Shown: one piece after another, positions 403 through 20,413 of the stretch
Layout: every line of letters starts with the position of its first letter
Position numbering within the stretch: position 1 is the stretch's first letter
Virus record (IMG/VR): IMGVR_UViG_2778261527_000010
Location: 1-20,659 of that record
Length of the DNA stretch: 20,659 nucleotides
Reading direction: 5' to 3' (one strand)
From: a virus
Lineage: Duplodnaviria; Heunggongvirae; Uroviricota; Caudoviricetes
The notes under the pieces: model-generated
Told to the model about the DNA's origin: nothing
The model's input: only the letters and a program-made list of their open reading frames with translations
Database searches by the model: none
Program-made: the position numbers and the translations under genes

Positions 403-403
403 A
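358..403 (+). repeat. attL core: 46-bp direct repeat covering the 3' end of ssrA
   Basis: atgtaggaatttcggacgcgggttcaactcccgccagctccaccaa repeated at 16279-16324 with one mismatch (g378 vs a16299). Confidence 0.85.
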
Positions 404-412
404 ATAAATCAA

Positions 413-444
413 GGGGTTACGTGAAAGCGTAGCCCTTTTTTCTT
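413..444 (+). terminator. rho-independent terminator just downstream of ssrA
   Basis: Stem ggggttacg / cgtagccc (one wobble) with loop tgaaag, followed by tttttcttt. Confidence 0.55.
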
Positions 445-510
445 TGGTAGTGGCGGCAAAACGGCGGCAGGCATTCAGTCAAGCCCAGTTGCTACTACAT
501 GCGATCGCAA

Positions 511-1284
511 TTACAACTTAAAGAGTTTCGCTTGCTCTGGATTAACAGCTTCGACGTAGTTTTTGACCCCTATTCTGTGCGGCTCATAATTGCTTGAATA
601 GAAATCAATCAGGAAGTCACTCATTTTCTGAGATGTGACTTTCATAACTCCCTTACTCAAAGTTAAATTAAACACGCTAATCTTTGACGATGGTGCCTGA
701 GTTTTACTCATGTTGGCTTGATAACCAGATTTACGCATTGCCACTAGTGCTTCGTCGTAAGCCGCTTGTAATTGGGCCAAATCGTTTGACGAGATGATCA
801 CATCATCCATAAACACACTTAGCTTGAGATCATGATGTTTGTTCAATCGGCGTAGTAAGCTACCAAAATAACTTTTATCTAAGCAGAGGGTTGCAAGTAT
901 TGGAGATTGAACAAAACCAAAAGGGAGGACATGCTTATGTGGACTATGGGACAAGTTTCTTACAGTTGAAAATGTTGAGATTTCCCGCGCTTGAGAATAG
1001 GTGAAGTAGCTCTTTAGATCACGGGTGATACGACTACGGCTCGTTGACTGAAAAAATTGTTTAATATCAACAACGGCAAAAAAATCACTTTTTAAGTGTA
1101 ATCTGGCAGCTTTAAGATGCCCACCAGTTCTTAGATGGTAAAAATAGAGTGGCGGAATCCACTTGTTTCTGACAGCCTGAAGTATCTTCCCTCCGACTTT
1201 ACGTGCCTCAACGCTTGGGACATAAACCCAAACCCCGGGCTTAATCTCAAATTTATCTTCCCACCTTTGAACTTCTATTGTCAT
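511..1284 (-). CDS. compact reverse transcriptase (257 aa), palm/finger domains only
   Basis: RT motifs in canonical order: motif A FFAVVDIKQFF, motif B' LPFGFVQSPILATL, motif C SVFMDDVII (F-x-D-D), K-T-containing domain 6; no thumb or effector extension; AT-richer than phage core. Confidence 0.8.
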   Translation of the reverse strand: MTIEVQRWEDKFEIKPGVWVYVPSVEARKVGGKILQAVRNKWIPPLYFYHLRTGGHLKAARLHLKSDFFAVVDIKQFFQSTSRSRITRDLKSYFTYSQAREISTFSTVRNLSHSPHKHVLPFGFVQSPILATLCLDKSYFGSLLRRLNKHHDLKLSVFMDDVIISSNDLAQLQAAYDEALVAMRKSGYQANMSKTQAPSSKISVFNLTLSKGVMKVTSQKMSDFLIDFYSSNYEPHRIGVKNYVEAVNPEQAKLFKL

Positions 1285-1441
1285 GAGTTAAATTGTTGTA
1301 GTTGAAGGCCATGTTAAGAACGGCGTAAACCGCACCAACTAAGCCAACAAACGCGGTTGCGCATTTGAGCATAGCGGTGATCAGTTCAACACGCGCCTTA
1401 ACTAAGCCAAGTTCGTTTGTATCCATAACTTGTTCCTCCAT
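1253..1441 (-). CDS. small predicted single-pass membrane protein (62 aa from ATG 1441; 57 aa from ATG 1426), 3' end overlaps the RT start by 32 nt
   Basis: Hydrophobic segment LITAMLKCATAFVGLVGAVYAVLNMAF; GGAGGA 7 nt upstream of the second ATG (1426); overlap suggests translational coupling with the RT. Confidence 0.5.
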   Translation of the reverse strand: MEEQVMDTNELGLVKARVELITAMLKCATAFVGLVGAVYAVLNMAFNYNNLTHDNRSSKVGR

Positions 1442-1687
1442 AGATACCTGACGTCTCTTAGCGCAAGCGCATGGCCCTAACTAAATAAAAAATAACAACC
1501 AGTTAGCCCAGAAAGCTTAACAAGTCGGCGTCCAATTACATGGCAATCAGGTAATCGGTCCGCAGTCGCAAAGCGACAAACTACATATCTACGGAGTGGG
1601 GATAAATCCCCGCTAACGTCAGGCATTGTTAATTTAACCTCAACTTATAGAAAAGTATAGTTTTAAATCATGTAGTTATGTCGCCAT
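1442..1687 (-). ncRNA. candidate structured noncoding RNA / leader upstream of the RT module (hypothetical, retron msr-msd-like)
   Basis: No ORF; perfect hairpins ggggataaatcccc (1598-1611), gtcgcaaagcgac (1565-1577), gcgcaagcgc (1461-1470); 8-bp inverted repeat cctgacgt/acgtcagg (1616-1623 vs 1447-1454) with TAGC + G-rich hairpin right after the upstream arm on the minus strand. Confidence 0.25.
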
Positions 1688-1906
1688 TTAAATCGGCAAA
1701 CCCACCTGTTTAAATTTATGAGGATGCGGCTGAACCGGATTTGACTCTTTTGGCGTTGCAATCGAACGAACAAAAGTTTCATGGGTAACAAAAGTATGGC
1801 TGCAGTTAATGTTCTGGCACTGGTTGTAACGCTCTTTGGTCAATGAAGATACCTGAAAACTGCTGCGAGTATGGGCGGCACTTCCACACAGTGGGCAAAT
1901 CATCAT
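1688..1906 (-). CDS. ogr: Ogr/Delta-family zinc-finger late-gene transcription activator (72 aa)
   Basis: MMICPLCGSAAHTRSS...YNQCQNINCSHTF with C-x2-C...C-x4-C spacing as in P2 Ogr; GGGGAGA RBS 9 nt before ATG at 1906; lies immediately after gene D as in P2. Confidence 0.85.
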   Translation of the reverse strand: MMICPLCGSAAHTRSSFQVSSLTKERYNQCQNINCSHTFVTHETFVRSIATPKESNPVQPHPHKFKQVGLPI

Positions 1907-1996
1907 TTTTCGAGTTCTCCCCATTTTTGCTAAATGCACAATAATGATATCGCATTATTCCATTTTTCAAACTTAAAAGTTCTCCATTGTGAAGAA

Positions 1997-3097
1997 TCAT
2001 TCCATTTCGAGATCATCAACCTTCACTTCAAGCTCAAGACTGGTCGTAAAACCGTTATCCGGGCTGACGGTATGTGTCAGGGTGGTAATGGTCCATTCCG
2101 CATCATCTATCGGCTGTTTAAAGCCACTGACTTTCACTGGCATTTCCGTGTAGAGATCTGCCCGCCCTTCCGCCAGTTGTAGCGAGAATGCCGCAACACC
2201 GCGTTGCAGACGTTCCCACTGCATTTTCGCCGCTCGTTCGGCGTTGCTCCGGTTGGCATAAGTGCGATTAAGTACCAGCACGTTTTCATCCGTACCCACC
2301 AGGTAATCGCCCTGCTTCGCTTCCGGCTCTTTCTTCTGCTTCTTAGTCCTGCGCTTACGCTTCACCATGGTGCTTTCTTTCTTCGCGGGTTCGCGGGTAT
2401 GCAACCAGCTGGCAATTACGCCCGTATAGGCTCCGCGATCTGCCAGGGTAAAGCGGTGACTGTCGCCGTCCTTACGCGTGATAGTGATCACCGGCAGTGG
2501 TTTACCGCTGGCGCTTTTGCCCTGTCCCTGCCGGATGAATAACAGATTGCCATTTTTCACCGACGCAATAGCACCGTACTGGCGCGCCAGCCGCATCAAA
2601 AAACTACCGTCACTCTCATTAGTCTGGTCTATATGCTCCACGGGCTTATCCGACAGGTCTTTACCCAGTGCCATCTTCAGCTTGTGACGTACGGCTATTT
2701 CCTTCACCACTTCCCCGACAGTGGTCTTGTGCCACGATTTTTCGCGGCGGGTATTCAGCGTTTCCCGAAAATCAGCACTTCGCGCCCGGATAGTCAGGCG
2801 GTCCGGTGCGCCAGTGTGTTCAATCTCGTCCACCGTGAATGCCCCTTTCGGGAAAAGCGGCTGCCCCTTCCACCCCAGCGCCAGCGTAATGACCGCACCA
2901 CGGCGCGGCAGCACTATTTTTCCGTCGGCGTCGTCCAGCTCCAGATCAAGCTGGTCTGCTTCAAAGCCCCGATTGTCCGTCAGCGTCAGACTCATCAGGC
3001 GGTTATCCAGCACAGTGGTGATATCCTTCCCCTCAATACTGATGCTGAATGCGGGAGTTTTGTTTCCTTTGTTAAGCAGTTCAGAGCTGAAATTCAC
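1997..3097 (-). CDS. D: P2 gpD-like tail protein (late control gene D)
   Basis: 366-aa translation matches gpD along its length (LTLTDNRGFEADQLDLEL, TIRARSADFRETLNTRRE, VKVSGFK, NGFTTSLELEV); ATGA overlap with the upstream U gene. Confidence 0.9.
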   Translation of the reverse strand: MNFSSELLNKGNKTPAFSISIEGKDITTVLDNRLMSLTLTDNRGFEADQLDLELDDADGKIVLPRRGAVITLALGWKGQPLFPKGAFTVDEIEHTGAPDRLTIRARSADFRETLNTRREKSWHKTTVGEVVKEIAVRHKLKMALGKDLSDKPVEHIDQTNESDGSFLMRLARQYGAIASVKNGNLLFIRQGQGKSASGKPLPVITITRKDGDSHRFTLADRGAYTGVIASWLHTREPAKKESTMVKRKRRTKKQKKEPEAKQGDYLVGTDENVLVLNRTYANRSNAERAAKMQWERLQRGVAAFSLQLAEGRADLYTEMPVKVSGFKQPIDDAEWTITTLTHTVSPDNGFTTSLELEVKVDDLEME

Positions 3098-3579
3098 GAC
3101 AGCAGCCCTCCCACCGTTTTACTGATATCGCTTAAGGCAGACGTTGTCGTATCCTGCAAATTATTCAGCTGCGCACTGAGATCACCGAACATATCGGACA
3201 GGGATTCATCCACCCGTTTGAGCGACAGGGTGAACTCAATCCGGCGCGGCATACCATCGCGGAAAAACTCCGTTTTAGTCTGATTCAGTCCCTCAATCAC
3301 ATACATGCCGTAAATCGTGCCGCTGCCTTCAATCAGGGGCCATGCTTTTCCCTGTTCTGCCATCTGCTCCAGAGCCAGCAACGACAGCCTGCCGCCCGTT
3401 ATCTCCGGCATAAGAACACCAGAAAGCGTCAGCATGTCGTTGTCTGGTCCCAGAAACTGCGTGGACGGACGTCGATTGACCCGGCTGTTTGCCGCATGTC
3501 GCCAGCTGCGTTGATACTGCAGTTCCTGATACGGCACAGTGCGCAGCATAAACACGTACAATCCCAGCACCATCATCAT
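3094..3579 (-). CDS. U: P2 gpU-like tail protein
   Basis: 161 aa, MMMVLGLYVFMLRTVPYQELQYQRSWRHA... matches gpU; overlapping start/stop with T fragment and D. Confidence 0.85.
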   Translation of the reverse strand: MMMVLGLYVFMLRTVPYQELQYQRSWRHAANSRVNRRPSTQFLGPDNDMLTLSGVLMPEITGGRLSLLALEQMAEQGKAWPLIEGSGTIYGMYVIEGLNQTKTEFFRDGMPRRIEFTLSLKRVDESLSDMFGDLSAQLNNLQDTTTSALSDISKTVGGLLS

Positions 3580-3995
3580 GCTTCGTATCCCCCCTGATCG
3601 CTGTAGTTACTCCTGGCTTTTGCCTTCAGCCTGCGTTCACGTTCATCAAGCTGGCGGGCCACCTCCCGCGCAATATCCTGCGCACTTTGTCCTGGCTGCG
3701 TCTGAATGATGATCTGCATCGGTGCCTCAATCCGTTGAACGGGCGGCACAGTGGCTGCACGACTCACCATCGCTTCGCCGCCTTTCGCGGGAAGTGCCAA
3801 AGAATGCAACGGTGGAAGCTCTGCAGGCGCGGCAGCAACGCCCATCATTCCGGCAACAACGGCAGCCAGTGCAGCTGTATTTCTCCGGCTGGTCACATTT
3901 GCCGGGCCGTTAACAATTTCCGGCCCGTTTTCACCGACGATGCCAAACTGCCCGCGCGGGATATAGCCGCCGCTGTCATACATCCCCGCAAAGCC
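3576..3995 (-). pseudogene. T: 3' fragment (~135 codons) of tail tape-measure gene (gpT-like); 5' part deleted
   Basis: C-terminal tape-measure-like sequence (GYGFAGMYDSGGYIPRGQFGIVGENGPE...) ending in-frame before U; reading frame runs into unrelated portal-gene sequence at ~3984-4003. Confidence 0.7.
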
Positions 3996-4003
3996 ATATC
4001 CCC

Positions 4004-4399
4004 ATGACCGATGCTGCGCAGAACCAGGAGGATGTGAACAACCTCCGCAATGCGATGAAAAGCGCCAAAGGTCCTGGTAACTTCCGTAACCTGTTTATGT
4101 ACTCGCCTAACGGTAAAAAGGACGGGCTTCAGATTATCCCGTTGTCAGAAGTGGCGGCGAAGGATGAGTTCCTGAATATCAAGAACGTGAGCCGGGACGA
4201 CATGATGGCGGCGCATCGTGTGCCGCCACAAATGATGGGGATAATGCCTAATAATGTCGGGGGGTTTGGGGATATCGAAAAGGCAAGCACAGTATTTGTA
4301 CGAAATGAGCTACTGCCTCTACAAAAAATGTTTCTAGAAATAAATAATTGGTTAAACGATAGAATTATAAATTTTTCAACCTACGAACTAAAAATTTAA
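4004..4399 (+). pseudogene. Q: 3' fragment of portal gene (gpQ-like); 5' part deleted
   Basis: Translation ...FRNLFMYSPNGKKDGLQIIPLSEVAAKDEFLNIKNVSRDDMMAAHRVPPQMMGIMPNNVGGFGDIEKA... resembles P2-family portal C-terminus; opposite strand to tail genes as in P2; last ~25 codons are AT-rich. Confidence 0.6.
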
Positions 4400-4415
4400 T
4401 TAAGATAATTTAGTC

Positions 4416-4433
4416 GGCCTCATTTCTGAGGCC
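4416..4433. terminator. bidirectional hairpin between convergent portal fragment and lmuB-like gene
   Basis: Perfect stem ggcctca / tgaggcc with 4-nt loop, flanked by A/T-rich sequence. Confidence 0.45.
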
Positions 4434-4439
4434 ATATTT

Positions 4440-6098
4440 TCATCTTGAAAGTATCACCCGTTCAAACAATGGCATTAATTGAGAATAAACATTATCATAA
4501 TGTTCATCATTTAAAAGATGATATTTATTTTCAAGTTTGATGCTATTAAAACCATCCATGAAACTCTCATAACCAACAGTTCCAATAATAATCTGATTTG
4601 TAAGGGAAAACCCATCCAAGCATAGTTTTATAAGCTTATGCGTATGCTCTGGATCCAAATCTTGTTGCTTTGGAGAGTCTATTACTATAGGCATATTCTC
4701 AACTGAAGAGTTGCTTTTCATAACACTAAGCAGCGCGTAGTGAAATGCAAATATACCTCGAGGACCTCGACTACCAGTCTTACCCTTAGTAATATTATTA
4801 TAACTACTAAGGCCACCTACCTTTGTATTTTCGACACCAAGCTCTTTAAGAGCTTTAGCGAAATACTCTTTGAAACAGTCATTTATTTTAACAGTTCTTT
4901 TCTTATCATTGTATACTTCTAATTCTTCTTGTAATTCTGTCAACTCGCCTTCTTTTCGACCAATCTCAACGAATAACTCATCTAACTGTGAAATAAAAGT
5001 AGATTCAATTTCATGGTATGCGGCAGATTTAATAACATCATGAAGCGTTATTTCCGATTGAGTTTCTAAAATCAGCGCCTGCAACGCCTCTGAAGCAGCC
5101 CTTGACTCTTCTAGCTTTTGATTCAATTTAGGAATATTTTCCTCAATCTTGCTTTTCTCATCTGCAAGAACAGCAATGTTTTTGAGCATTTCATCTCTAT
5201 GGTTTATATAATTATATTCATTTACTGAATAAGCAACATTATCATCTCGAAAATTCGAAATCTCAAATTCATTATCAATAATCGCAGTTATCTCTTTGAG
5301 TTCACTCTCAAGGAAATTCTTCCTAGAATATAACCTCAAAAGATTCAATCTATATTCTGTCTGAACTAAATTTAAATTAGAATATTCATTTAATATACGT
5401 TCCAACTTTGATTTATAAAAATCCAAATCAACATCAAATAAAACCACGCCAAAAGATTCATCAATCTTACTTTTGCTTCTTTTTAGAACCTTAACAAAAC
5501 CATCTAACTCTGAAATTTTAACTTTAATTTCTTTGATTTTCCCTTGAACTGTATAATATTCCTTTGGCTTAATTCCAGAGTGATAGTAAAGAATGTTTTT
5601 TTGCCATTCTGAGTACATACTCATGTTTTCGAAAGAATTTATCACCGCTTTCCATCCTTCATCCTGATCAATAAAGAATGGGGCAAACAAACAAGCAGGG
5701 TTTGCCTGAGTCGTAGCACCCGTATATTTATTATGTAATTCCAGTTTAAAACCAAATATATTTGAAACACGAGATGCTAATGACGAAATCGTGTTATACA
5801 CGACTAGATCATCATTCTTCAAATCAAAGACACCAATAATCTTTTTATAACGCAAAAAAATAAAATCATTTTCCCCGTTATTAATTTCCACCAGTGTAAC
5901 TATATCATCTGATTTCCAAGCATCATCAAGCCTTAAATCTCCACCTAATGTGTAATAAAGACTTTTAATCAGGCTTGATTTACCAACATCATTTGTACCA
6001 TATATGAAGTTAACCCCTTCTGAAAACTCATAAGAAAAAGCTTTTCTGTCTCTTAATGAGAGTATTTTTATATTTTTAAATTTAACGTTATTCTTCAT
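4440..6098 (-). CDS. SMC-like ABC ATPase, LmuB-like (DUF3732-type) component of a Lamassu-like defence system
   Basis: N-terminal Walker A GTNDVGKSS, long coiled-coil middle (E/K/L-rich), C-terminal IVIDSPKQQ resembling the D-Q-P Walker-B variant of LmuB; GAGGA RBS before ATG 6098; 11-nt overlap with upstream gene; AT-rich. Confidence 0.6.
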   Translation of the reverse strand: MKNNVKFKNIKILSLRDRKAFSYEFSEGVNFIYGTNDVGKSSLIKSLYYTLGGDLRLDDAWKSDDIVTLVEINNGENDFIFLRYKKIIGVFDLKNDDLVVYNTISSLASRVSNIFGFKLELHNKYTGATTQANPACLFAPFFIDQDEGWKAVINSFENMSMYSEWQKNILYYHSGIKPKEYYTVQGKIKEIKVKISELDGFVKVLKRSKSKIDESFGVVLFDVDLDFYKSKLERILNEYSNLNLVQTEYRLNLLRLYSRKNFLESELKEITAIIDNEFEISNFRDDNVAYSVNEYNYINHRDEMLKNIAVLADEKSKIEENIPKLNQKLEESRAASEALQALILETQSEITLHDVIKSAAYHEIESTFISQLDELFVEIGRKEGELTELQEELEVYNDKKRTVKINDCFKEYFAKALKELGVENTKVGGLSSYNNITKGKTGSRGPRGIFAFHYALLSVMKSNSSVENMPIVIDSPKQQDLDPEHTHKLIKLCLDGFSLTNQIIIGTVGYESFMDGFNSIKLENKYHLLNDEHYDNVYSQLMPLFERVILSR

Positions 6099-7167
6099 AA
6101 GAAACATCCTCAAAAGTCAACTTTATAATTGCATATATAGCAATCATAAATTTCTCTTCTTGATTTAATAAAGAGAAATCCCCGTCCCCCGCTGCAATTG
6201 TTTTTTCGAGTGTAAAGAAGAGGTCTCGAACAGGTATCTCACGATAATGCTCTATACTCTTTAGAGCCGATTGAAATTCCAGAAAATAAAGATAGTATAT
6301 TGAATTGACATTGAGCACTTTTATTGATATGCGTGTAAAAACTGATTGTAATTTAATCCCCTCATAAGGATCTGAGAAAGTACCAAGCAACATACAAACC
6401 TGTTCCCATTTTGGCGTTATTTTTATGCTTGCAATGAGTCCAGATAATAAATCAGTTACAAATTCTGAAGATATACCTTTCTTTAGTACTAAATCTTCAA
6501 AAGTTTTGATATCACTAGAAGCAACACTAACCTTCTCATTACACTTATTGATTAATAATTTAGTGAATGCTGTTGAATTAATACCATGATCATCCCCAAA
6601 GTAAGAATTCAAAAAAACTGCAACTTTCCCGTATAAATGTGAGTTAGGATCTAACAAACTAAGATCAGATGTTTTAAATTTTATTTTATCAAGAGGAACT
6701 TCTTTTTTAGTATTTAGCTGCTCTTGAACCTTACTAATTATAATTTCCTTATGCTCATTATTAAGATCACTACCTTTTTCGTTATTATCATTTAAGAAAT
6801 CGAATCCAGCATTCGATAACAGAACCATATAAATTTCGTGACCAACGAATTGATAGAAATGGTCATATAGTTTTGCAACAAATGATTTAGGTTTAGCTTT
6901 TGTTGCGTTCACTATTGCTGCGAGTGTCCATTTACCATCTTTTTTTGTTTTAACTTGGATAAACTCAGCACTAGTCGGAGAAACAGATGAATTCAATACA
7001 AGAATATCGTCATGATATTCAAATAGAAATAAATATTTCTCCTTTTCTTTTTGTTTCTCAAGTAAATAATTTATCCCCCAAGAGGCTTGATATGAAAAGC
7101 CTCTCAACGCGTTTTCACCGCCCCGTTCGGCTTGATTTACTGTAATTAACGCATCTGATAACGCCAC
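6088..7167 (-). CDS. LmuA-like effector with N-terminal Cap4/DUF4297-type PD-(D/E)xK-like nuclease region
   Basis: N-terminus GFSYQASWGINYLLE...EYHDDILVLN...FIQVKTKK resembles the DUF4297 D...QxK core; GTG start, in-frame stop two codons upstream; AT-rich; sits at the P2 old/tin position. Confidence 0.5.
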   Translation of the reverse strand: MALSDALITVNQAERGGENALRGFSYQASWGINYLLEKQKEKEKYLFLFEYHDDILVLNSSVSPTSAEFIQVKTKKDGKWTLAAIVNATKAKPKSFVAKLYDHFYQFVGHEIYMVLLSNAGFDFLNDNNEKGSDLNNEHKEIIISKVQEQLNTKKEVPLDKIKFKTSDLSLLDPNSHLYGKVAVFLNSYFGDDHGINSTAFTKLLINKCNEKVSVASSDIKTFEDLVLKKGISSEFVTDLLSGLIASIKITPKWEQVCMLLGTFSDPYEGIKLQSVFTRISIKVLNVNSIYYLYFLEFQSALKSIEHYREIPVRDLFFTLEKTIAAGDGDFSLLNQEEKFMIAIYAIIKLTFEDVSYEE

Positions 7168-7310
7168 TCTATATATCCCTATTGTACTGCTTTTTTTTGA
7201 TACAAATTACCTTAGCTTCACCATCAAGTCCACAGATTCATGGCTAAGCGCGCGCTCGTATCCCCGCCACGCCTGCCCGCTTTATGTAGTGGTTTTCATG
7301 CACCTGCATG

Positions 7311-7342
7311 ATCTACGCAAAAGCCCACCAGTTCTGGCGGGC
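7311..7342 (-). terminator. rho-independent terminator after the tum/DinI-like operon
   Basis: Minus-strand stem gcccgccag / ctggtgggc (one mismatch) followed by ttttgcg. Confidence 0.45.
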
Positions 7343-7477
7343 CTTAGCAAAAACGATCCTCAAACGATCATGCGATCTCATGCGGCATAGACATGCACTA
7401 CAGAGCTAACGCCTCGCAAGGGCTCGTTGTTCAACCTTGCTGACGCCAGAAACAAGTTCAGACGCCAGCAACGTTTC

Positions 7478-7711
7478 TTAATGCAGCCAGCTGTCGTCTT
7501 CCCACACCTTCTGCATAATTTTCATCACTTGCTTCCTTTCTTCGTCCAGTTGCAGTCCGGTCAGTTCCACACCGTTAGAGCTACCTTTGCGGATACGAAT
7601 TACCGTTTTGGGATACAGGGGGTGCAGATTACGGTAAAGCTCGGATTCAAGGGCGTCCAGGGTCGACTGGCTAATCTTCTGCTCTTTATCGATCATTATT
7701 TCAATGCGCAT
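7478..7711 (-). CDS. DinI-family protein (186 Tum C-terminal-domain-like)
   Basis: MRIEIMIDK...LDALESEL...IRIRKGSSNGVELTGL...KQVMKIMQKVWEDDSW parallels E. coli DinI; AGGTGA RBS 6 nt before ATG 7711. Confidence 0.75.
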   Translation of the reverse strand: MRIEIMIDKEQKISQSTLDALESELYRNLHPLYPKTVIRIRKGSSNGVELTGLQLDEERKQVMKIMQKVWEDDSWLH

Positions 7712-7721
7712 AAAAGTCACC

Positions 7722-7910
7722 TCAGCTGATGACATCCATTGAGCGGTTGTATTCGTGGCTTCTGATTTTTGCCATGAGTTCATCAGTCAATTCAGAAACC
7801 CACTGCAGAGCCAGTCCCTTCTCTTCATCACTACACTCACTGGCCGCTACAAGCTTAAGAAAAAAATCAATGCGCTGGAGCTTCAAAGACTCCAAAAAAT
7901 AGTCCTGCAT
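7722..7910 (-). CDS. small protein (62 aa), first gene of the LexA-controlled operon; possibly the N-terminal part of a split tum
   Basis: AGGAGG RBS 4 nt before ATG 7910; ends 10 nt before the DinI-like start; a frame open upstream of the DinI start overlaps it. Confidence 0.5.
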   Translation of the reverse strand: MQDYFLESLKLQRIDFFLKLVAASECSDEEKGLALQWVSELTDELMAKIRSHEYNRSMDVIS

Positions 7911-7951
7911 CTTTCCTCCTATGACACCACACGCAATACTGTATGTATAAC

Positions 7952-7971
7952 CACTGTTTATAATTACAGTA
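7952..7971. promoter_or_regulatory. LexA (SOS) box upstream of the tum-like operon
   Basis: cACTGTttataattACAGta: perfect CTGT-N8-ACAG with AT-rich spacer; a second half-match (tactgtatgtataacc) lies adjacent at 7937-7953. Confidence 0.7.
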
Positions 7972-8063
7972 TATAATAATATTACTGATGTAAAACGTTT
8001 TTTTACGTTTATCAGCCTGATATGCCTGGTATTATTAAGAGCACGAATGGTTAACCATCGTAA

Positions 8064-10478
8064 TTAATACAGGTTTCGCCACTTATCATCTTCCTGCAAA
8101 CGCTGGTTCCGATAGAAGATACGCAGGCCTGCTCCTGACGGAATACTGCCGCCGCGAAGGAGTAAATCGACCTCTTTCTCGCTACCATCAAACCCTCTGG
8201 ACTTCAGCTCATACTCGAGCTGCTGTCGCTGATGGTCTGTAATTCGCTGTTTGTAGTCTTTACGCCGTTTCGGTTTAACCAGGTGTAACCTTGCTGCCAG
8301 TTCCCGGCGTTCTTTTTTGCTCATACTGTGCAGGTAATCGTGCAACTCCTTGTCATCCATGCGGGTGATATCCGTTCTGGTATCCCCATCAGCTGATTTG
8401 TCTTTCCCTTGTTGGTTCAAATTTTCAGCAAGGGGACAGTTATTGCCACGAGTCCAAGGGGCGCAAGCGCCCTGGTCGGCTGCCGCCTCCTGAACGTCAA
8501 CGGCTTTACGAACCATTTTCCACTTCACTGCATGAGTGCAGATCTTGCCCTCTGCAATGGGTGACCAGATGCCATAAATACGAATGCCGTGATCGCCATA
8601 GGCGGTCGGCTCTTCGTTGATTTCATAAGCGGTTCTGATGAGGTGATATTTACGGGGAACCAGTACGCCGCCCTGCTTCATGATGTAGGTGGCAAAACAA
8701 CCAGCATCAGCAGCAGCCAGGATGGCATCAAGGCGCGGGTTATCCAGTACCGGCGCACCTGCTTTTTTGTCCCCCTGTTGCCTTGCCGCCTGACCAGCCA
8801 GCAATCGCAGTTCACGGTAAGCCTGACGCCCCGGAATGCCAAAGAAGCGGAATTGCTGAACACGATGCAAAGACGCCCAGGCATTCACGTATTCAGCGTT
8901 ATCACGCAGAGATTTACCCGTTTCCTTGCTGATCTCGCCAGCCAGACCACGCCCGTCAATGTTCTTACTGATGTATTTCGCTATGTAGCTTGTCGGCGTT
9001 CCTTTGCGCGGGTTAATCAGCTCAGACTTAAAGCGCGGCCCCGTGTTATTGCCCAGCTCCTCGCGGTCTTCACGGATAGCAAACTTACGCAACAATGCAG
9101 TAATGGCTCGGCGGTCTTTTTTGCGCATGAAACACAACAGGTGCCAGTGAACTGTGCCGTCGTGATGCGGCTCAGCCACCCGCACGCCATACCAGCGCAA
9201 CCCGGCTTTGTGCATCGCCTTACGAAATGCAGCAAACATACCGACCAGATAATCGCTGCTTTGTCTTACCGTCGCATTTGTCCAGGTCGGGTTGGGCCTG
9301 CCGTTATTTAGCGTGGAATGGAAACGTGACGGACAGGTGATGGTGTAGAAAACGGCGCAGTCACCGCGCATTTCCGCGATAAGCTCCAGACCTTTAACAC
9401 AGGCCATCATCTCATTGCGGCGATGCGCAGGGTTGCTGCTGCTGGCGTTTACCACATCCTCCATGTCCAGCGTGTCGCCGTCTTCGTTCACCAGTTCATG
9501 AGAACGGAAAAACTCCAGCGACTTACGGCGCTGCTCACGTTTATGCAACACGGCTTCATAGCTGACATAGGGAGATGCTTTTTTGCTGACAAGGCAGACA
9601 GCACGCAACTGCTCTTCCCGCCATTCGCAACGCATCTTCCATAATTTCCGATACCACCAGTCGGCGCACAACATACGCGCCAGCGAACCCGGAATGAGTT
9701 CATAGGGCACGGGTTTACGGCGGTTTCTTTTCCGACGGAGTTGCTCAAACGCAGGCGGGATGACATCCAGACGCAGGGTTTCCGCTGCCACCCTTTCCCA
9801 TGTCTTGCGGATTTCTTCTGGCTTAACGTCATCGGTGGCATACAAATCGCCACAAGCGGCATCAAGGCACATACTCATATGCGCAGCTACCAGGGTGGAC
9901 AGGCGTTTCACCTGATCCTGACTCATTTCAGGCAGGATCAGCAGGCCGTCCAGCCCTTCATGGCTTGCCATAAAGCGAAAAGATGCAGATAGCTGACTGT
10001 CGCGTACATGCTCCAGTCGTTCCAGACATGGCTTAATCGTCTCACGTAAATAGCGGGAATAAGCCTTTGGCCTGCCCAGGCTGCTGAAGTATTCAATACG
10101 TTGCATCAGCGGCTTGCTGATATGGGAAGGCTGGGCGTTGACGTCCGCCAGAATGACCATATCCGGATTAAAACACTGCTGCTCATGCGCCAGCTTTGCC
10201 CGACTAATGAGCTTATCCTGTTCCATTTCGCGCTGGACAGGATCACGGGATTCATTAAAGAAATAACGCTCCCAGACCTGATCACTCAGCGCCTCACGGC
10301 GCAGCTGTTCCTGCTCGTTATCGGCAGCGTACAGAGTGATCAGGTTTGAAAGCGTAGAAACCGGCGCAACTTCCGCCGGGTCCAGATAAGGGTTAATGGC
10401 CTTTTTCGGGCTGTTCCATGAGAACGATGCGGCAGCTTCGTTAAAGCCGCAGCAGTTGTTCATATCGGCATGACTCAT
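8064..10478 (-). CDS. A: P2 gpA-like rolling-circle replication initiator endonuclease (804 aa)
   Basis: Active-site tyrosine motif [13 protein letters not shown] and metal-binding [15 protein letters not shown] as in P2 A; ATGA overlap with upstream dam-like gene. Confidence 0.9.
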
Positions 10479-11332
10479 GCACGTACTCCGTACACGGCAG
10501 AACTATCCACGCCACGCGAATAATCAAATCCCACCCAGCAGCGCGGCCCAGAAACAGCAATGATTTCTGTTGCTGATTTACCCTCGCCAGCTGCCACACC
10601 GATGCTGCGTTTTGCCTTGATGTAGTGGTGAGTAAAATTGCGATACAGCGAACGGATCAGGGATGTGTCACTGTTAGAAACAATGACCGGATGTCCTTCT
10701 GATGACCGATGTTCAAGAACAGATGCCAGGTGATACTGGTCATCTTCAGTGAAGCCGTCAGTGTGATAGCCGGAAAACGTACCGTCATACGGCGGATCGC
10801 AATACACCACATCCCCCGCCTTCAACATCGCCAGCGTTTCATCAAAGCTGGCGCAGATAAACGTTGCTCGCTGGGCCTTTTCTGCAAATGCGCGAATTTC
10901 TTTTTCAGGGAAATACGGATTTTTATAATTACCGTAGGGAATGTTGAAATGCCCGCTCTTGTTATAGCGACATAAACCACGGTAACCGTGACGATTGAGA
11001 TACAGGAAATATACCGCTTTCATGAAATCAGTAATTTCAGTTGAGTAATTAAACTCCTGCCTTATGTTGTAATAAGCCACCTCCCTGTTTGCGATCTCAA
11101 ATAAAACTCTGGCGCGAGATATAAACGATTCACAATCAGCGGCAACCTTTTTATAGAGGTTGATTAAATCAGGATTAATATCCGCAACCAGATAGCTGGG
11201 ATAATCCGTCTCCATCATCACAGCACAGGAACCCGCGAAAGGTTCAACCAGTCGCGGGCCAGCAGGAAGATGTTTTTTCAGTTCGGACATTATGGCAGTT
11301 TTATTTCCCGCCCATTTCAGGATGGTGCTCAT
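10475..11332 (-). CDS. Dam-like N6-adenine DNA methyltransferase (285 aa)
   Basis: ILKWAGNK and [10 protein letters not shown] (AdoMet-binding), DPPY catalytic motif; GGAGGT RBS 5 nt before ATG 11332; ATGA overlaps with both neighbours. Confidence 0.8.
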
Positions 11333-11556
11333 ACAGCACCTCCGTTGTAATGTTTGCCTTTCAGCTCTGCGATTTCCTGACAGGTAATGCAAAGCTGCAC
11401 ACCCGGAATGGCACGGCGGCGTGCTGGCGGAATTGGCGCTTCACACTCAATGCAAAGCACGCGTGACACGCCCGGTGTTTTGGCACGGGCTGCACGGATA
11501 TGGCGCTGGCGTTCTTCTTCAACGCGCTGCTGTACGAGATCCATTGCATCAGCCAT
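11329..11556 (-). CDS. TraR/DksA-family C4 zinc-finger protein
   Basis: C-x2-C...C-x2-C (CIECEAPIPPARRRAIPGVQLCITCQ); start overlaps stop of upstream ORF (TAATG). Confidence 0.7.
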   Translation of the reverse strand: MADAMDLVQQRVEEERQRHIRAARAKTPGVSRVLCIECEAPIPPARRRAIPGVQLCITCQEIAELKGKHYNGGAV

Positions 11557-11789
11557 TAGTGGATCTCCTGCGCTTCGTTCTGGATTGCTTCAGCAGTCAC
11601 ACGCAGCAGTTCTGCTGCTTCGACGTGGTTTAGCTGGCAGATTGTGATATGACACGCTAGGCTATCAAGGCGGGCAGCCATTGCCTCAGCCCTTGCCCGG
11701 CGTTCTTCCAGACGAGCCTCTGTCAGTAAAATATTAAGCCCTGCGTCATCCGGTCTGGTTTTGGTCGAGAGGGTTTCAATATTACGCAT
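11556..11789 (-). CDS. hypothetical phage early protein (77 aa)
   Basis: AGGAGA RBS 7 nt upstream of ATG 11789; coupled to the TraR-like gene. Confidence 0.45.
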   Translation of the reverse strand: MRNIETLSTKTRPDDAGLNILLTEARLEERRARAEAMAARLDSLACHITICQLNHVEAAELLRVTAEAIQNEAQEIH

Positions 11790-11856
11790 AATCAATTCTC
11801 CTGAATTTAGATAAAGGGATGCACGGCGGGTTTACGCCATTAATTTCATTAGTTGC

Positions 11857-12198
11857 TTAATTCGGCATGGTTAGCCGTCTGGGAAATAAGCTCACCACTG
11901 CACGAAAATGATTCATTGCTTTAATCAACTCCCGCTTTTCGTCAGTGGTCAGCTCATTAATGCTGATGCTATGACGTTCAGCTGGAATTTTTGCCATAAA
12001 GAATATGGCAGCCAGTGCCCGTTTATTTTGTTCATTATTGATATCCCGTGGATCACGCATATCTTTAATAAACCGCTCAAGCTCTGACTCAATATTCAAA
12101 CCAAAAACTTTCGCCCTTAACTCCGCAATATGATTAAGTCCATTCAGGCGTTCACCGGGTCTTAATGGAACAGTCGCCGCAGCGCCTTCAATAGCCAT
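11857..12198 (-). CDS. hypothetical phage early protein (113 aa)
   Basis: GGGGGA RBS 6 nt before ATG 12198; in the 186 fil/dhr-equivalent position. Confidence 0.5.
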   Translation of the reverse strand: MAIEGAAATVPLRPGERLNGLNHIAELRAKVFGLNIESELERFIKDMRDPRDINNEQNKRALAAIFFMAKIPAERHSISINELTTDEKRELIKAMNHFRAVVSLFPRRLTMPN

Positions 12199-12362
12199 TT
12201 GTTCCCCCGTTTTTTCGTAGATAGTTCTGCCAGCAATTCATCTTGTGAACGGCACGGATGCCAGCGTTTACCATCCTCACCCATGATCCAGCCGTGACCG
12301 TAGTGCATTGCCGGACTTTGTTTTACCAGCAGCGATGCAAATGATGGTTCTTTCGTCAGCAT
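12162..12362 (-). CDS. hypothetical small protein (66 aa)
   Basis: AGGTG RBS before ATG 12362; 37-nt overlap with the downstream gene. Confidence 0.35.
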   Translation of the reverse strand: MLTKEPSFASLLVKQSPAMHYGHGWIMGEDGKRWHPCRSQDELLAELSTKKRGNKWLLKALRRLFH

Positions 12363-12369
12363 AAGCACC

Positions 12370-12879
12370 TCACAGCAAACCGAATGAAGCACCGAGGCCA
12401 GTTACAGTATCAACTGCACTTGCCATCGCAGGATTAACCTGTAAACGGGCCTGCAATGAAACAGCAGCTAACGCCATCAGTCGTGTAACAGAGTTAATGC
12501 TGCTGATAGCATCACGACGACCTGCACTGGTTTTTACATCGCCAGATACCGCACCTGCAGCAACACGCCCGATCTCTGCGGTTGCACTCATGACGTAATG
12601 TGGCAGTTTCTCTTTTGCCACCTCATTAATCGGTACACATGGCAGGCAGTGAATCTGTGCCAGAAAACCGTCTACCAGCGTTGAATCTTCCGTCAGATCG
12701 GTAAGTAGCCAGATATCTGGCGCATTGAGCTGATGCGGTTGATCTGGGTTGAGTTTGTTTCGCAGAGTCTGGACATTCATTCCTGCACGTTCTGCCAGCT
12801 TCGCCATATTGTGACGAAGTGCAAAAGCTCTACAGGCTTCATCAAAATGCGGGTGTTTGGAAATCTTATAATCAAACAT
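12370..12879 (-). CDS. cII: phage 186 CII-like transcriptional activator (169 aa)
   Basis: MFDYKISKHPHFDEACRAFALRHNMAKLAERAGMNVQTLRNKLNPDQPHQ... HTH protein matching 186 CII in length and sequence as I recall it. Confidence 0.85.
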   Translation of the reverse strand: MFDYKISKHPHFDEACRAFALRHNMAKLAERAGMNVQTLRNKLNPDQPHQLNAPDIWLLTDLTEDSTLVDGFLAQIHCLPCVPINEVAKEKLPHYVMSATAEIGRVAAGAVSGDVKTSAGRRDAISSINSVTRLMALAAVSLQARLQVNPAMASAVDTVTGLGASFGLL

Positions 12880-12911
12880 GCTACCCCCTTAGAAAGTTCT
12901 CATAATTGAAC

Positions 12912-13154
12912 TTACTTACCAACAATGACGCGGAAGTTGGAATGACCGAGGGATTCACGGACCTGATCGGTTTTGTACATTAAATAACGCAGGCTTACGC
13001 GGCCTTTGTTTTTTTCTTTCTTGACCATGTATTTAGCAAGCTGACCATGGTGAATTTTTTGATACACAGAGCCGCGGGAGATACCTTCCCATTCCGCGAA
13101 CTCTGCAGGCGTAGCCATCTCTTTTGGTACACGAATTGAAATATCAGTGCTCAT
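12912..13154 (-). CDS. apl: Apl/Cox-like small HTH excisionase/regulator (80 aa)
   Basis: First gene of the lytic operon, divergent from cI; HTH-like EFAEWEGISRGSVYQKIHHGQL; GGGAGA RBS. Confidence 0.6.
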   Translation of the reverse strand: MSTDISIRVPKEMATPAEFAEWEGISRGSVYQKIHHGQLAKYMVKKEKNKGRVSLRYLMYKTDQVRESLGHSNFRVIVGK

Positions 13155-13210
13155 AGTGCAGTATCTCCCGATTAAGGTTTGGTTTACGTCGTTTTATCTC
13201 GTTTTACTTG

Positions 13211-13259
13211 ATTCAATATTTGATACATCGAGATACTACGATCCAATATTTGATACGTC
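13211..13259. repeat. two direct repeats (caatatttgatac, 13214-13226 and 13244-13256; 17/19 identity when extended) in the immunity switch region; candidate operator sites
   Basis: Identical 13-mers 30 bp apart; one lies between -35 and -10 of the lytic promoter, the other just downstream of its predicted start. Confidence 0.45.
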
Positions 13260-13261
13260 AA
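13233..13261 (-). promoter_or_regulatory. pR-like lytic promoter for apl-cII operon
   Basis: Minus strand TTGACG-17 nt-TAGTAT; correctly placed upstream of apl. Confidence 0.55.
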
Positions 13262-13273
13262 CAGGATTAAAAA

Positions 13274-13906
13274 ATGATACAGGTAAAGGTTGGAGAGAAT
13301 ACAGGGGGAAGAGAGGCTATCCATAGACTAATGGCAGCCTATGATTTCAAGTCCAGACAGCAACTTTGCGATCACTTAGGCGCATCAAAAAGCACCATGG
13401 CAAACAGATACTTAAGAGATAGTTTTCCTGCAGAGTGGGTGATTCAGTGCGCCTTGGAAACAGGAGTTTCTTTATTGTGGCTAACCACCGGACAGGGGGA
13501 GCCAGGTCCAAACATTGAACCTAAAAAAAATATCAATTCCGTGAACTCCAGCAAGGTTGTACCTCTTTCTGAACTAGTATCTCCTGAAATTGACAAGGCG
13601 ACTCTCAACGGTGGTTTATTGGTCGATGCTGGAAAAGCAATCATTGATAGCAGCATACTCCCCTCAGACTCAAGCAACCTACTGCTGGTGACTACTTCTG
13701 GTGATTCTTATTTAATAGATCGCAACCAAACACCACCAGTAAATGGTATGTGGTTAGTCGATATCGACGGGATAAAAAGCATCGTTAAATTGACTCGACT
13801 CCCGGGAAACAAATTAGTAGTGCATCAGGATGATTCATCGTTTGAGTGCGGTCTGGATGACATTGAGGTAGTAGGCCGCGCACTGAAAATCATTAAGAGC
13901 CTTTGA
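13274..13906 (+). CDS. cI: CI-like immunity repressor (210 aa)
   Basis: N-terminal HTH (SRQQLCDHLGASKSTMANRYLR); divergent from apl; immediately upstream of int as in 186. Confidence 0.75.
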   Translation: MIQVKVGENTGGREAIHRLMAAYDFKSRQQLCDHLGASKSTMANRYLRDSFPAEWVIQCALETGVSLLWLTTGQGEPGPNIEPKKNINSVNSSKVVPLSELVSPEIDKATLNGGLLVDAGKAIIDSSILPSDSSNLLLVTTSGDSYLIDRNQTPPVNGMWLVDIDGIKSIVKLTRLPGNKLVVHQDDSSFECGLDDIEVVGRALKIIKSL

Positions 13907-13907
13907 T

Positions 13908-14924
13908 ATGACCATCAGAAAACAGCCGAACGGAAAATGGTTGTGTGAGTGCTATCCCAATGGACGCAATGGCAAGCGCGTGCGTAAGCAATTTGCCACG
14001 AAAGGCGAAGCCATTGCGTTTGAAAGCTTCACAATGGAAGAAGTGAATAAAAAACCGTGGTTGGGTGAAAAGGATGATCGGCGACGCCTATCAGAATTAA
14101 TTGAGCTTTGGTATTCCCTGTATGGTCAGACACTCGCAGACCCCAAGCGCCTCATGGCGAAACTTAGAATTATCTGTAATGGCCTAGGCGACCCCATCGC
14201 CTCAGAACTGACAGCCGGAGACTTTACGAAATACCGCGAAGCACGGTTAAAAGGTGAAATACGAAATGAAGATGGCACGCTTATGTCGCCCGTTAAGCCC
14301 CGCACGGTAAACCTTGAACAACGCAATCTATCATCGGTGTTCGGTACATTAAAAAAACTAGGACACTGGTCAGCACCAAACCCGCTGGCAGGACTTCCGA
14401 CCTTCAAAATTGCCGAAGGTGAGCTGGCTTTTCTTTCCACGGACGAAATCAAGCGCCTGTTGGCGGCATGTGCTGAATCTCAAAGCCCTAGCTTACTAAT
14501 GATTGCAAAAATATGCCTAGCTACTGGCGCACGGTGGAGTGAAGCAGAAAATTTGCAGGGCCATCAGTTATCCAAATACCGCATCACTTATACCAAGACG
14601 AAGGGCAAGAAAAACCGTACCGTGCCAATATCTCAGGATCTGTACAACGAACTTCCTAAAAATCGAGGGAAGTTATTCTCACCATGCAGAAAAGCCTTTG
14701 AGCGTGCAGTAAAGCGGGCCGATATTGAGCTTCCTGAGGGTCAATGCACCCATGTATTACGTCATACATTCGCCAGCCATTTTATGATGAACGGAGGAAA
14801 CATACTTGTGCTTAAAGAAATTTTAGGCCATGCCGATATAAAAATGACCATGATTTATGCGCACTTTTCTCCAGATCATCTGGAGGATGCGGTAACTAAA
14901 AATCCTTTAAACTATATAGAGTGA
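13908..14924 (+). CDS. int: tyrosine integrase, P2/186 family (338 aa)
   Basis: Catalytic-region motifs ATGARWSEA, HVLRHTFASHF, LGHADIKMTMIYAHF; adjacent to attR. Confidence 0.9.
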   Translation: MTIRKQPNGKWLCECYPNGRNGKRVRKQFATKGEAIAFESFTMEEVNKKPWLGEKDDRRRLSELIELWYSLYGQTLADPKRLMAKLRIICNGLGDPIASELTAGDFTKYREARLKGEIRNEDGTLMSPVKPRTVNLEQRNLSSVFGTLKKLGHWSAPNPLAGLPTFKIAEGELAFLSTDEIKRLLAACAESQSPSLLMIAKICLATGARWSEAENLQGHQLSKYRITYTKTKGKKNRTVPISQDLYNELPKNRGKLFSPCRKAFERAVKRADIELPEGQCTHVLRHTFASHFMMNGGNILVLKEILGHADIKMTMIYAHFSPDHLEDAVTKNPLNYIE

Positions 14925-16480: not shown

Positions 16481-16557
16481 TCCCTTAAGTTCCTAGCCGC
16501 TTATCTATAACTATGGAAAAATGTTAACCCTGACTGTATGTTAACAAAGGGATGTAT

Positions 16558-19233: not shown

Positions 19234-19594
19234 AATTCCTCCAAGGGGTCTAATGGGTGAAACTTTATCACTCATTCAACCCAGAAGGAAATGTTTTATC
19301 TGGATATTTAAACAGTGACTACAACGTAATCTAGCACTGGTGATGCTTTGTTAGGCATAGAGAATCATTCTATATACGACTAATGACAGAAAAACAGCAG
19401 ACAAGTAGTTTGTTCATAAATTAACGCATACTATGTGTCTACGGTTTTCGAGACCGGTCCAATCATCAAACGAAACATAAAATTAGCTCACATTATGAGG
19501 AAAAGTATCTTTTTTGTACTATGTAAATTCAAAGGCTTAGCCTCATTTCTCCGATGGTTTTCTCAACACTACTGGTTGTGAGCCCTTGCAATGA

Positions 19595-20413
<819 letters not shown>

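Follow-up and report, generated by a model that had tools for sequence, protein, structure and literature searches.

Type VI retrons, represented by Retron-Vpa2, Retron-Eco12 and Retron-Sen3, encode a non-coding RNA (ncRNA), a small protein (SP), a helix-turn-helix (HTH) protein of the Cro/C1 kind and a short reverse transcriptase (RT), in that order (ncRNA-SP-HTH-RT); according to the published description, ~22% of the Type VI entries are without the HTH gene. In Retron-Vpa2, the ribosome-binding site of the toxic SP is buried in a hybrid RNA; multicopy single-stranded DNA (msDNA) can hardly be detected at rest, and SP translation depends on it (bioRxiv 10.1101/2025.10.22.683967). A second source on Type VI likewise describes a hybrid RNA in which the SP ribosome-binding site is sequestered, with derepression that depends on msDNA (10.64898/2026.04.27.721009). 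Here, we analyse a locus of related organization in IMG/VR virus record IMGVR_UViG_2778261527_000010 (Caudoviricetes), of which the whole stretch studied, 20,659 nucleotides, is called the window. An earlier note, made from the letters of the window, had flagged positions 1442-1687 as a possible retron-like ncRNA beside a small open reading frame (ORF) and an RT gene. We find that this region almost certainly gives rise to a functional, conserved structured RNA that is tied to the SP and RT genes on the minus strand, and that this RNA very likely controls SP translation by sequestering the Shine-Dalgarno (SD) sequence. Positions 1626-1427 of the minus strand are probably the non-coding 5' portion of a hybrid RNA whose remainder encodes SP and RT.

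On the minus strand, reading towards ssrA, the order is the P2 tail gene D, ogr, the flagged intergenic stretch, the small ORF (SP) and the RT gene (coordinates of all features are given in Table 1). Close relatives of the RT form 72 clusters in a word-indexed search, and an exhaustive profile search returned at least 280 representatives at 50% identity (E <= 1e-30). Among the 150 best matches listed, nearly all full-length members are ~250-260 amino acids long. A genome scan yielded 80 RT loci, which belong to Alpha-, Beta- and Gammaproteobacteria and, in a few cases, to other phyla. Flanking protein families are common to at most 4 of these 80 loci, and the conserved unit, as judged from this set, is the upstream RNA, the SP and the RT alone. 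A GCGC-loop-GCGC hairpin, present ~150-200 nt ahead of the RT gene in nearly all gamma- and betaproteobacterial loci, served as the anchor for locating the pairing arms in each locus. Statistics on RNA pairs were computed from a plain MAFFT alignment of 46 loci and from a model-based alignment of 56 loci. Covariance model R1 matched each locus exactly once, in every case directly upstream of SP, with no further match in 505 kb; it also matches loci L023, L046 and L054, which are outside the training set. The alphaproteobacterial loci are too diverged for R1, and most of them show the same arrangement of arms with other sequences. An Rfam scan of positions 1-2400 with E up to 10 returned only tmRNA and chance matches, and no retron or other family. 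In the literature we found no description of an HTH-less SP-RT retron or of such an RT next to ogr, and searches on a type XIV retron, on newly named retrons and on RTs by ogr in P2-like phages turned up no account of the family.

The inverted-repeat arms reported in the earlier note are present on the minus strand as described, ~160 nt apart, with an 8-bp core in which CCUGACGU (1623-1616) is complementary to ACGUCAGG (1454-1447). With flanking bases, the core becomes an 11-bp helix, A-A', that includes one G.U pair. Within the window the repeat is unremarkable, as the note itself had cautioned: there are 15 inverted pairs of at least 7 nt in 351 nt. The 261-nt minus-strand RNA folds better than shuffled sequences (z = -3.0; plus strand, -1.9). 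The comparison of homologous loci, which the note had proposed as a check, supports the helix. RNAalifold predicts A-A' unprompted from the MAFFT alignment, with double compensatory changes in 6 of the 7 pairs. The proportion of paired cells in A-A' is 97.5%, versus 89.6% in shuffles (0/500) and 22-51% with the 3' partner slid by 1-3 columns, and it reaches 98.2% in the model-based alignment. In an alignment-independent test, cognate arms form duplexes of -14.2 kcal/mol versus -8.9 kcal/mol for non-cognate arms (0/5000 permutations). The arms differ between loci yet remain complementary (CCUGACG/CGUCAGG, CCCGGC/GCCGGG, CUUGGC/GCCAAG, CCUAGC/GCUAGG and UCUGGC/GCCAGA), and alphaproteobacterial loci have pairs of their own in the same place (CCCCUAGCA/UGCUAGGGG, GACUUUAGCAA/UUGCUGAAGUC and CUUCGGCGU/GUGCCGAAG). 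In all 46 aligned loci the 5' arm is promoter-proximal and the 3' arm lies just before the small ORF; repeat and hairpins, on whose retention in homologous RT loci the note had staked its proposal, are both kept. The covarying A-A' helix is thus a terminal stem of the retron type (a1/a2 inverted repeats) beside an RT operon.

The note had also warned that the RNA could be a leader or attenuator, and this warning was well placed: a second covarying helix, B-B', pairs an anti-SD segment with the ribosome-binding site of the small ORF. MAFFT loses the B/B' register between subgroups, and the helix was tested by comparing cognate with non-cognate duplex energies. Cognate duplexes average -14.2 kcal/mol versus -9.8 kcal/mol for non-cognate ones (0/5000 permutations); in the same test A-B' and B-A', which served as controls, stay at chance level. 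B and B' change in step between loci, for example CCUCAUC/GAUGAGG, CUCCAUU/AAUGGAG, CCUCUAUUC/GAAUAGAGG, CCUCGACUC/GAGUCGAGG and CCUUAGAUC/GAUCUAAGG. The segments follow one another in the RNA as A, B, A' and B'. The helices therefore cross, giving either a pseudoknot or a pair of alternative states. In nested folds of the window RNA the two are nearly isoenergetic, with -65.6 kcal/mol when A-A' is enforced and -64.2 kcal/mol when B-B' is enforced; the SD is in a hairpin loop within the A-A' fold. Across the family, the median difference between the A-A' and B-B' folds is -2.1 kcal/mol, and one of the two folds averages within 0.7 kcal/mol of the unconstrained minimum. The retron-like and the leader readings of the RNA are compatible, and by its covarying helices the RNA appears to be both at once.

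A third pairing is kept as a lead. GCUUAG (1407-1402), inside the SP ORF, can pair with GCUAAG (1462-1457), and in the family GCGC-CUAGG faces a GCCUAG motif that is conserved at the nucleotide level ~20-30 nt into the SP coding sequence; its complement, CUAGGC or CUAAG, directly follows the GCGC hairpin. The GCCUAG/GCUUAG motif spans R/G-L-V codons, with CUA or UUA as the Leu codon; CUA is a rare codon in E. coli. The effect is small (-10.6 vs -9.9 kcal/mol; 4/5000 permutations), and there is some covariation, namely UAAG/CUUA (three lineages), UAGAC/GUCUA and CAGG/CCUG. This pairing may be a third long-range helix like IR1-IR2 of Retron-Sen3.

The perfect stem-loops that the earlier note had seen between the arms (hairpin 1, hairpin 2 and the GCGC hairpin in Table 1) were confirmed, and they are parts of a conserved series of elements. 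In the family this series runs -10 box, 5' arm, (A)UAG[G/C], hairpin 1, pyrimidine-rich segment B, hairpin 2, hypervariable hairpin, UUGGUU, GCGC hairpin, UAGG, 3' arm, SD and AUG. As read from the aligned loci, this is the retron order of a2, branching G, msr hairpins, msd hairpin and a1. G1613, within the UAGC motif, is a candidate for the branching (priming) guanosine on account of its presence and conservation, and the local UUAGCG is identical to the branch region of the Ec86 msr. In every locus the UAG[G/C] motif is followed by a hairpin; it is mostly AUAGGC...GCCUAU, with variants such as AUAGAC/GUCUAU in L063 and GUAGGC/GCCUAC in L034 (inspected by eye, unscored). In hairpin 2, 96-98% of the cells are paired, and A-U pairs are replaced by G-C pairs in 6-7 loci. 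The hypervariable region differs in sequence and in length (40-107 nt) between loci, and its hairpin has a mean z of -1.44 against dinucleotide shuffles, with 65% of the loci below -1 and the window at -3.6. Counterparts of the UUGGUU box in alphaproteobacterial loci are UUGGUUGA or UCAGUUGAC. GCGC/GCGC is found in 46 of 46 aligned loci, with varying loops.

Of the flagged span, 1627-1687 is promoter and intergenic DNA and lies outside the RNA. A putative sigma-70 promoter there, proposed on grounds of conservation, would start the transcript at ~1626-1622, that is, at the 5' arm. In 29 of 50 loci, the distance from the end of a -10-like TAnnnT to the invariant AG downstream of it is 16-17 nt, and TTGACA-like -35 boxes occur in several loci (e.g. 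L004, L021 and L077). A generic promoter and terminator scan of the window did not call the minus-strand promoter, and it found no terminator between the RNA and SP. On the plus strand, a promoter-like site at 1634-1661 (TTAACC-16-TATAGT, 9/12 matches) is directed towards ogr and is probably a chance occurrence in A+T-rich DNA.

The 3' arm lies just before the small ORF, as the earlier note had stated; the start codon is most likely AUG 1426, preceded by the SD GGAGG (1439-1435), rather than AUG 1441, because the upstream AUG is missing in the 81%-identical locus L038 of Klebsiella michiganensis. In the family, SP is a 40-65-amino-acid ORF with the consensus MKKxxxxRLV...LLNMAFNY that ends inside the first RT codons. 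N42 and Y43 are invariant in SP alignment A5, and the hydrophobic helix of the window SP reaches a Kyte-Doolittle maximum of 1.94. SP has no match in Pfam, PADLOC or PHROG; we presume that it is the toxic effector. The RT gene starts 32 nt inside the SP ORF (overlap 1253-1284) and is without an SD of its own. Most relatives have an overlap of 4-80 nt, with RT usually in the +1 frame, and the overlap together with in-frame fusions in two loci suggests translational coupling and possibly a physical association of SP with RT.

The RT gene carries only the RefSeq name 'reverse transcriptase domain-containing protein'. The catalytic aspartates D160 and D161 are invariant in the RT alignment. A profile search of the PDB gave retron RTs only at the top (Kva2, Eco8, Ec86, Ec78, Ec83 and Ec67; E 3e-12 to 1e-7), and a group II intron RT followed at E 5e-5. 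The AlphaFold (AF2) model of the RT has a predicted local distance difference test score of 95.2 and shows no alpha-Rep or extra domains in its 257 residues. The 17 best Foldseek matches of this model in the PDB are retron RTs with template modelling (TM) scores of 0.67-0.76, a range that covers the comparisons with the Ec86, Ec83, Eco7, Eco8 and Eco2 RTs. DRT9, G2L4 and group II RTs come after these (TM 0.63-0.72 for DRT9 and G2L4). All 30 sampled family RTs match retron RT models of PADLOC first, weakly, with RT_VI at 1.9e-24 as the best; the PADLOC-DB 2.0 models date from 2023.

For calibration, we used the RT and regulator pair of the Burkholderia P2-like phage KS5 (PMC3091744), a true Type VI retron. 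The KS5 RT, gp44, scores 260 bits with RT_VI (4.6e-78) and the KS5 regulator scores 117 bits with HTH_VI, whereas the window RT reaches 63 bits with RT_VI. Other retron-type models give 76-115 bits for gp44 and 27-54 bits for the window RT, and the two proteins are 24% identical over 169 residues. An assignment to Type VI was rejected after this calibration of the RT score and because there is no HTH gene or other conserved neighbour. Six family accessions that we checked are absent from the published Type IV/V/VI tree. The RT is therefore best described as a trimmed, divergent retron-like enzyme outside the typed clades compared; the family might be an unrecognised deep branch of Type VI. The KS5 genome itself (L081, GU911303) has an unannotated 67-amino-acid ORF (MATPSIKRPKRK...) at ~2084-2284 on the minus strand, upstream of the regulator gp45 and the RT gp44, with a structured leader that precedes the ORF and follows a TTGACT/TAGACT promoter. 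The Type VI retron of KS5 (SP-HTH-RT) is thus complete; the 2010 annotation lists the RT and regulator only.

Set beside Type VI, the window locus shares a promoter-proximal ncRNA that is contiguous with the SP coding sequence and followed by a short RT, as well as paired terminal inverted repeats and a non-conserved central stem-loop between conserved elements. The sequestration of the SP ribosome-binding site in the RNA is also common to both, supported here by the covariation of B-B' and a presumably contiguous transcript, and the long-range pairing into the SP coding region may be a further likeness. Carriage by P2-like phages is another, as KS5 illustrates. There are also differences. The window SP overlaps RT directly, which leaves no room for an HTH ORF in the place where Type VI has its Cro/C1 HTH gene. 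The RT is ~255 residues long with the low RT_VI score given above, and model R1 gives no match at the KS5 locus. Type VI SPs are small helical proteins with a hydrophobic core at the C-terminus; the SP here is shorter (~40-60 residues) and has an NY motif of its own, and no similarity between the window SP and the KS5 SP ORF is evident by eye.

Canonical retrons such as Retron-Eco1 (Ec86) share with the window the a2 arm, a UAG(C) with a candidate branching G, one or more msr-like hairpins, a candidate msd hairpin and a1, all upstream of the RT, and also the RT fold, with the Ec86 and Ec83 RTs as the closest structures (TM 0.74-0.76). In contrast to canonical retrons, the presumed effector gene is located between ncRNA and RT and would be under the translational control of the ncRNA. 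Compared with the Ec86 RT, the window RT is without ~48 N-terminal and 24 C-terminal residues. It also does not have the NAxxH and VTG signatures of canonical retron RTs. These signatures are characteristic of retron RTs (PMC7736814).

We consider it probable that the locus is a minimal, as yet unclassified retron-like module of ncRNA, SP and RT that works like Type VI, with reverse transcription of the RNA as part of its cycle. The paired arms, the invariant AG, the hairpins, the -10 box and the adjoining retron-like RT support the retron-like ncRNA reading put forward in the earlier note. We propose that the RT binds the leader RNA and that complementary DNA (cDNA) would be primed from the 2'-OH of G1613 in the manner of retrons. 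Copying would proceed from ~1455 through the GCGC hairpin first, then through the variable hairpin, towards the anti-SD segment. At rest, B-B' would block SP translation, and the RT would be silent as well, since RT translation begins inside the SP ORF and no separate SD serves it. Upon phage infection, synthesis or accumulation of cDNA could open or remove the anti-SD strand via RNase H or strand displacement; alternatively, cDNA could lock the A-A' conformer, which leaves the SD accessible. SP would then be made and damage the membrane, and the cell would be killed or arrested (abortive infection). By analogy, the logic would be that shown experimentally for Type VI Retron-Vpa2, minus the HTH protein. 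In a more far-reaching proposal, which we put forward tentatively, the family would be the most compact known retron lineage, unclassified and widespread in Proteobacteria: one RNA, a protein of ~45-57 residues and an RT of ~255 residues, with no HTH or enzyme effector, in which a pseudoknotted or bistable RNA couples reverse transcription (A-A') to translation of a membrane toxin (B-B').

Several observations weigh against the proposed retron-like module. In most relatives the invariant G forms part of the hairpin 1 stem (AUAGGC...GCCUAU), an unusual setting for a branch point. The only Rfam hit in the region is a chance-level match to RsmY, on the opposite strand (E = 9.9). The RT has a low retron score, with 63 bits for its best PADLOC match, RT_VI, and could use another mode of priming or another template. 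At the NAxxH site the family consensus is GGH(V/L)AAxxxH (A59-A60-x-x-H63, positions by eye), and at the VTG position it is (V/I)-F205-N206 (alignment A1, by eye). The in-frame SP-RT fusions in L031 and L052 raise the possibility that SP may be a partner of the RT rather than a free toxin. Translation of the RT appears to be coupled to that of SP, which is awkward for a toxin that should be silent and an RT that is needed. Finally, nested folding of the sequence does not distinguish between coexistence and alternation of A-A' and B-B'.

Some of these observations would suit a simpler role, in which the RNA serves solely as a cis-acting leader or riboregulator of SP-RT translation, whose rate A-A' and B-B' would set as a pseudoknot or switch; the RNA would never be reverse-transcribed, and the RT is possibly an autogenous repressor with another template or none. 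The sequestration of the SD by B-B' is strongly supported, the two conformers are near-isoenergetic, and an RT that overlaps SP without an SD of its own fits autoregulation; the departure of the RT from the NAxxH and VTG signatures points the same way. A leader, however, has no need of the invariant AG after the terminal helix, the flanked hypervariable hairpin or a transcript that starts at the arm, all of which are retron-specific. The catalytic residues of the RT are invariant, and the enzyme therefore polymerises something, and there is no other conserved RNA or gene nearby. We regard a role as leader only as unlikely.

The SP and its leader also resemble the mRNAs of type I toxins, which would be inert until processed, with the RT as a passenger or unrelated partner. 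The hok and tisB mRNAs encode a small hydrophobic protein, have their SD sequestered by an upstream segment and show long-range pairing between 5' and 3' parts. With hok, tisB and zorO the locus shares the small hydrophobic ORF, an SD paired upstream and long-range pairing of the 5' end, and SP is without a family match. It differs from them in that no antisense RNA is evident and the ORF is obligatorily tied to an RT and a retron-like RNA. SP and RT always occur together, with overlapping or, in two loci, fused ORFs, and the RNA elements accompany the RT family in Alpha-, Beta- and Gammaproteobacteria alike. We saw no conserved antisense promoter or small RNA, and the sole plus-strand promoter-like site, that at 1634-1661, faces away from SP. 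A toxin mRNA with an incidental RT is accordingly quite improbable.

Very improbable is a system of the defence-associated reverse transcriptase (DRT) type, in which the ncRNA would template concatemeric cDNA that encodes a new gene, as in DRT2, or a homopolymer, as in DRT9. DRT2 and DRT9 have an ncRNA upstream of the RT, and the DRT9 and G2L4 RTs come second to retron RTs in structural similarity, yet the DRT and unknown-group (UG) models of PADLOC score below the retron models, with RT_UG33 at 34 bits, and the alpha-Rep or extra domains are missing. A DRT2-like neo ORF was considered and rejected: between the arms of the window each of the six frames is interrupted by stops, and a stop-free frame of any kind exists in only 21 of 46 loci. 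A chance origin of the inverted repeat and the hairpins in A+T-rich intergenic DNA, as the number of inverted pairs in the window might suggest, is ruled out for practical purposes by the covariation and conservation across loci of several proteobacterial classes.

If the proposed module is real, a large and taxonomically broad lineage (at least 280 clusters at 50% identity, Proteobacteria-wide and common in P2-like prophages of Klebsiella pneumoniae) would be added to the retron classification. Current retron detectors miss it, as the retron RT models of PADLOC 2.0 give at most 63 bits. It would also provide a natural minimal version of the Type VI mechanism that dispenses with the HTH protein. 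The RNA elements are short, strongly covarying and easily mutated, and would make the derepression of SP by msDNA in Type VI directly testable. The 257-residue RT and ~200-nt RNA would be the smallest retron-type pair of RT and template, which is of relevance to retron-based editing. As a frequent prophage module in Klebsiella pneumoniae, it may shape the phage susceptibility of a clinically important host.

Table 1. Features of the locus and its surroundings, in window coordinates.
Feature	Position	Strand	Remarks
ssrA (tmRNA)	40-402	plus	296 bits, at window start
G+C-rich hairpin, between RT stop and ssrA	411-438		plus-strand terminator call by generic scan
RT, 257 amino acids, FMDD catalytic motif	511-1284	minus	Pfam RVT_1, 77 bits
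SP, 57 amino acids	1253-1426	minus	basic N-terminus, hydrophobic helix, invariant NY (LNMAFNY)
Segment B' (UAUCUAUGGAG, 1446-1436) and SD GGAGG (1439-1435) of small ORF	1435-1446	minus	
3' arm A' (ACGUCAGGUAU), retron a1-like	1444-1454	minus	same covariation evidence as arm A
GCGC-UU-GCGC hairpin (1470-1461) and UAAGAG spacer	1455-1470	minus	spacer in family UAGGnn
UUAGUU box	1479-1484	minus	family consensus UUGGUU; nearly invariant columns in alignments A2 and A3
Hypervariable region	1485-1564	minus	two hairpins in window; candidate msd template stem
Hairpin 2, GUCGC-UUU-GCGAC	1565-1577	minus	family consensus GUCAC-N3-GUGAY
Segment B (CUCCGUAGAUA), anti-Shine-Dalgarno strand	1586-1596	minus	pairs with 1446-1436
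Hairpin 1, GGGGA-UUUA-UCCCC, msr-like	1598-1611	minus	directly after UAGC
UAGC motif	1612-1615	minus	A and G invariant in 46/46 aligned loci
5' arm A (AUGCCUGACGU), retron a2-like	1616-1626	minus	pairs with 1454-1444
Putative sigma-70 promoter	1631-1659	minus	weak -35 TATACT (1659-1654), 17-nt spacer, -10 TAAATT (1636-1631)
ogr	1688-1939	minus	Pfam Ogr_Delta
P2 tail gene D	1997-3097	minus	

The ncRNA, SP and RT are a self-contained three-part moron between ogr and the attachment site (att) of a degraded P2/186-like prophage. Downstream of the RT gene, the hairpin at 411-438 is a probable bidirectional terminator that would end the SP-RT transcript, its use on the minus strand being judged from the sequence. 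Beyond gene D follow the replication gene gpA, the CI repressor and the integrase. The prophage beside ssrA spans 403-14924, with D, ogr, gpA, CI and integrase still in place; an isolated piece of a portal gene at 4004-4399, on the opposite strand, suggests that the structural-gene region was largely lost or rearranged and that the prophage is a degraded remnant. The same module, with 99% protein identity, is located at the very end of 35.5-kb Klebsiella prophage records. Among 5,426 complete E. coli genomes only 27 carry it, and the cluster of the window RT (at least 90% identity) is common in Klebsiella pneumoniae, where single sequences are found on 963 and 318 contigs. Annotations of Salmonella Typhi, E. 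coli and Klebsiella genomes include fragments of this RT of 71-193 residues (at least 90% identity), which suggest recurrent decay of the module in some lineages.

Other defence genes are found in the window. The prophage remnant contains a Lamassu system at 4440-7167 on the minus strand, with an LmuB ATPase of 557 residues (841 bits) and an LmuA of 359 residues that has a Cap4-nuclease/DUF4297 domain (475 bits); it adjoins the P2 gpA gene, which is the position of the P2 old/tin defence hotspot. A 411-residue protein of unknown function, phrog_7835, is encoded at 14929-16164. Just beyond the prophage integrase are an EcoRII/Dcm pair and PD-T4-3. The EcoRII-type restriction enzyme ORF (16552-17295, plus strand) covers model positions 1-243 of 365 and is apparently truncated, and the Dcm-type C5 cytosine methylase beside it (17800-19275, minus strand) is intact. 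The PD-T4-3 defence protein (19640-20413, plus strand), just outside the prophage, is full-length and has a GIY-YIG domain (PADLOC, 463 bits).

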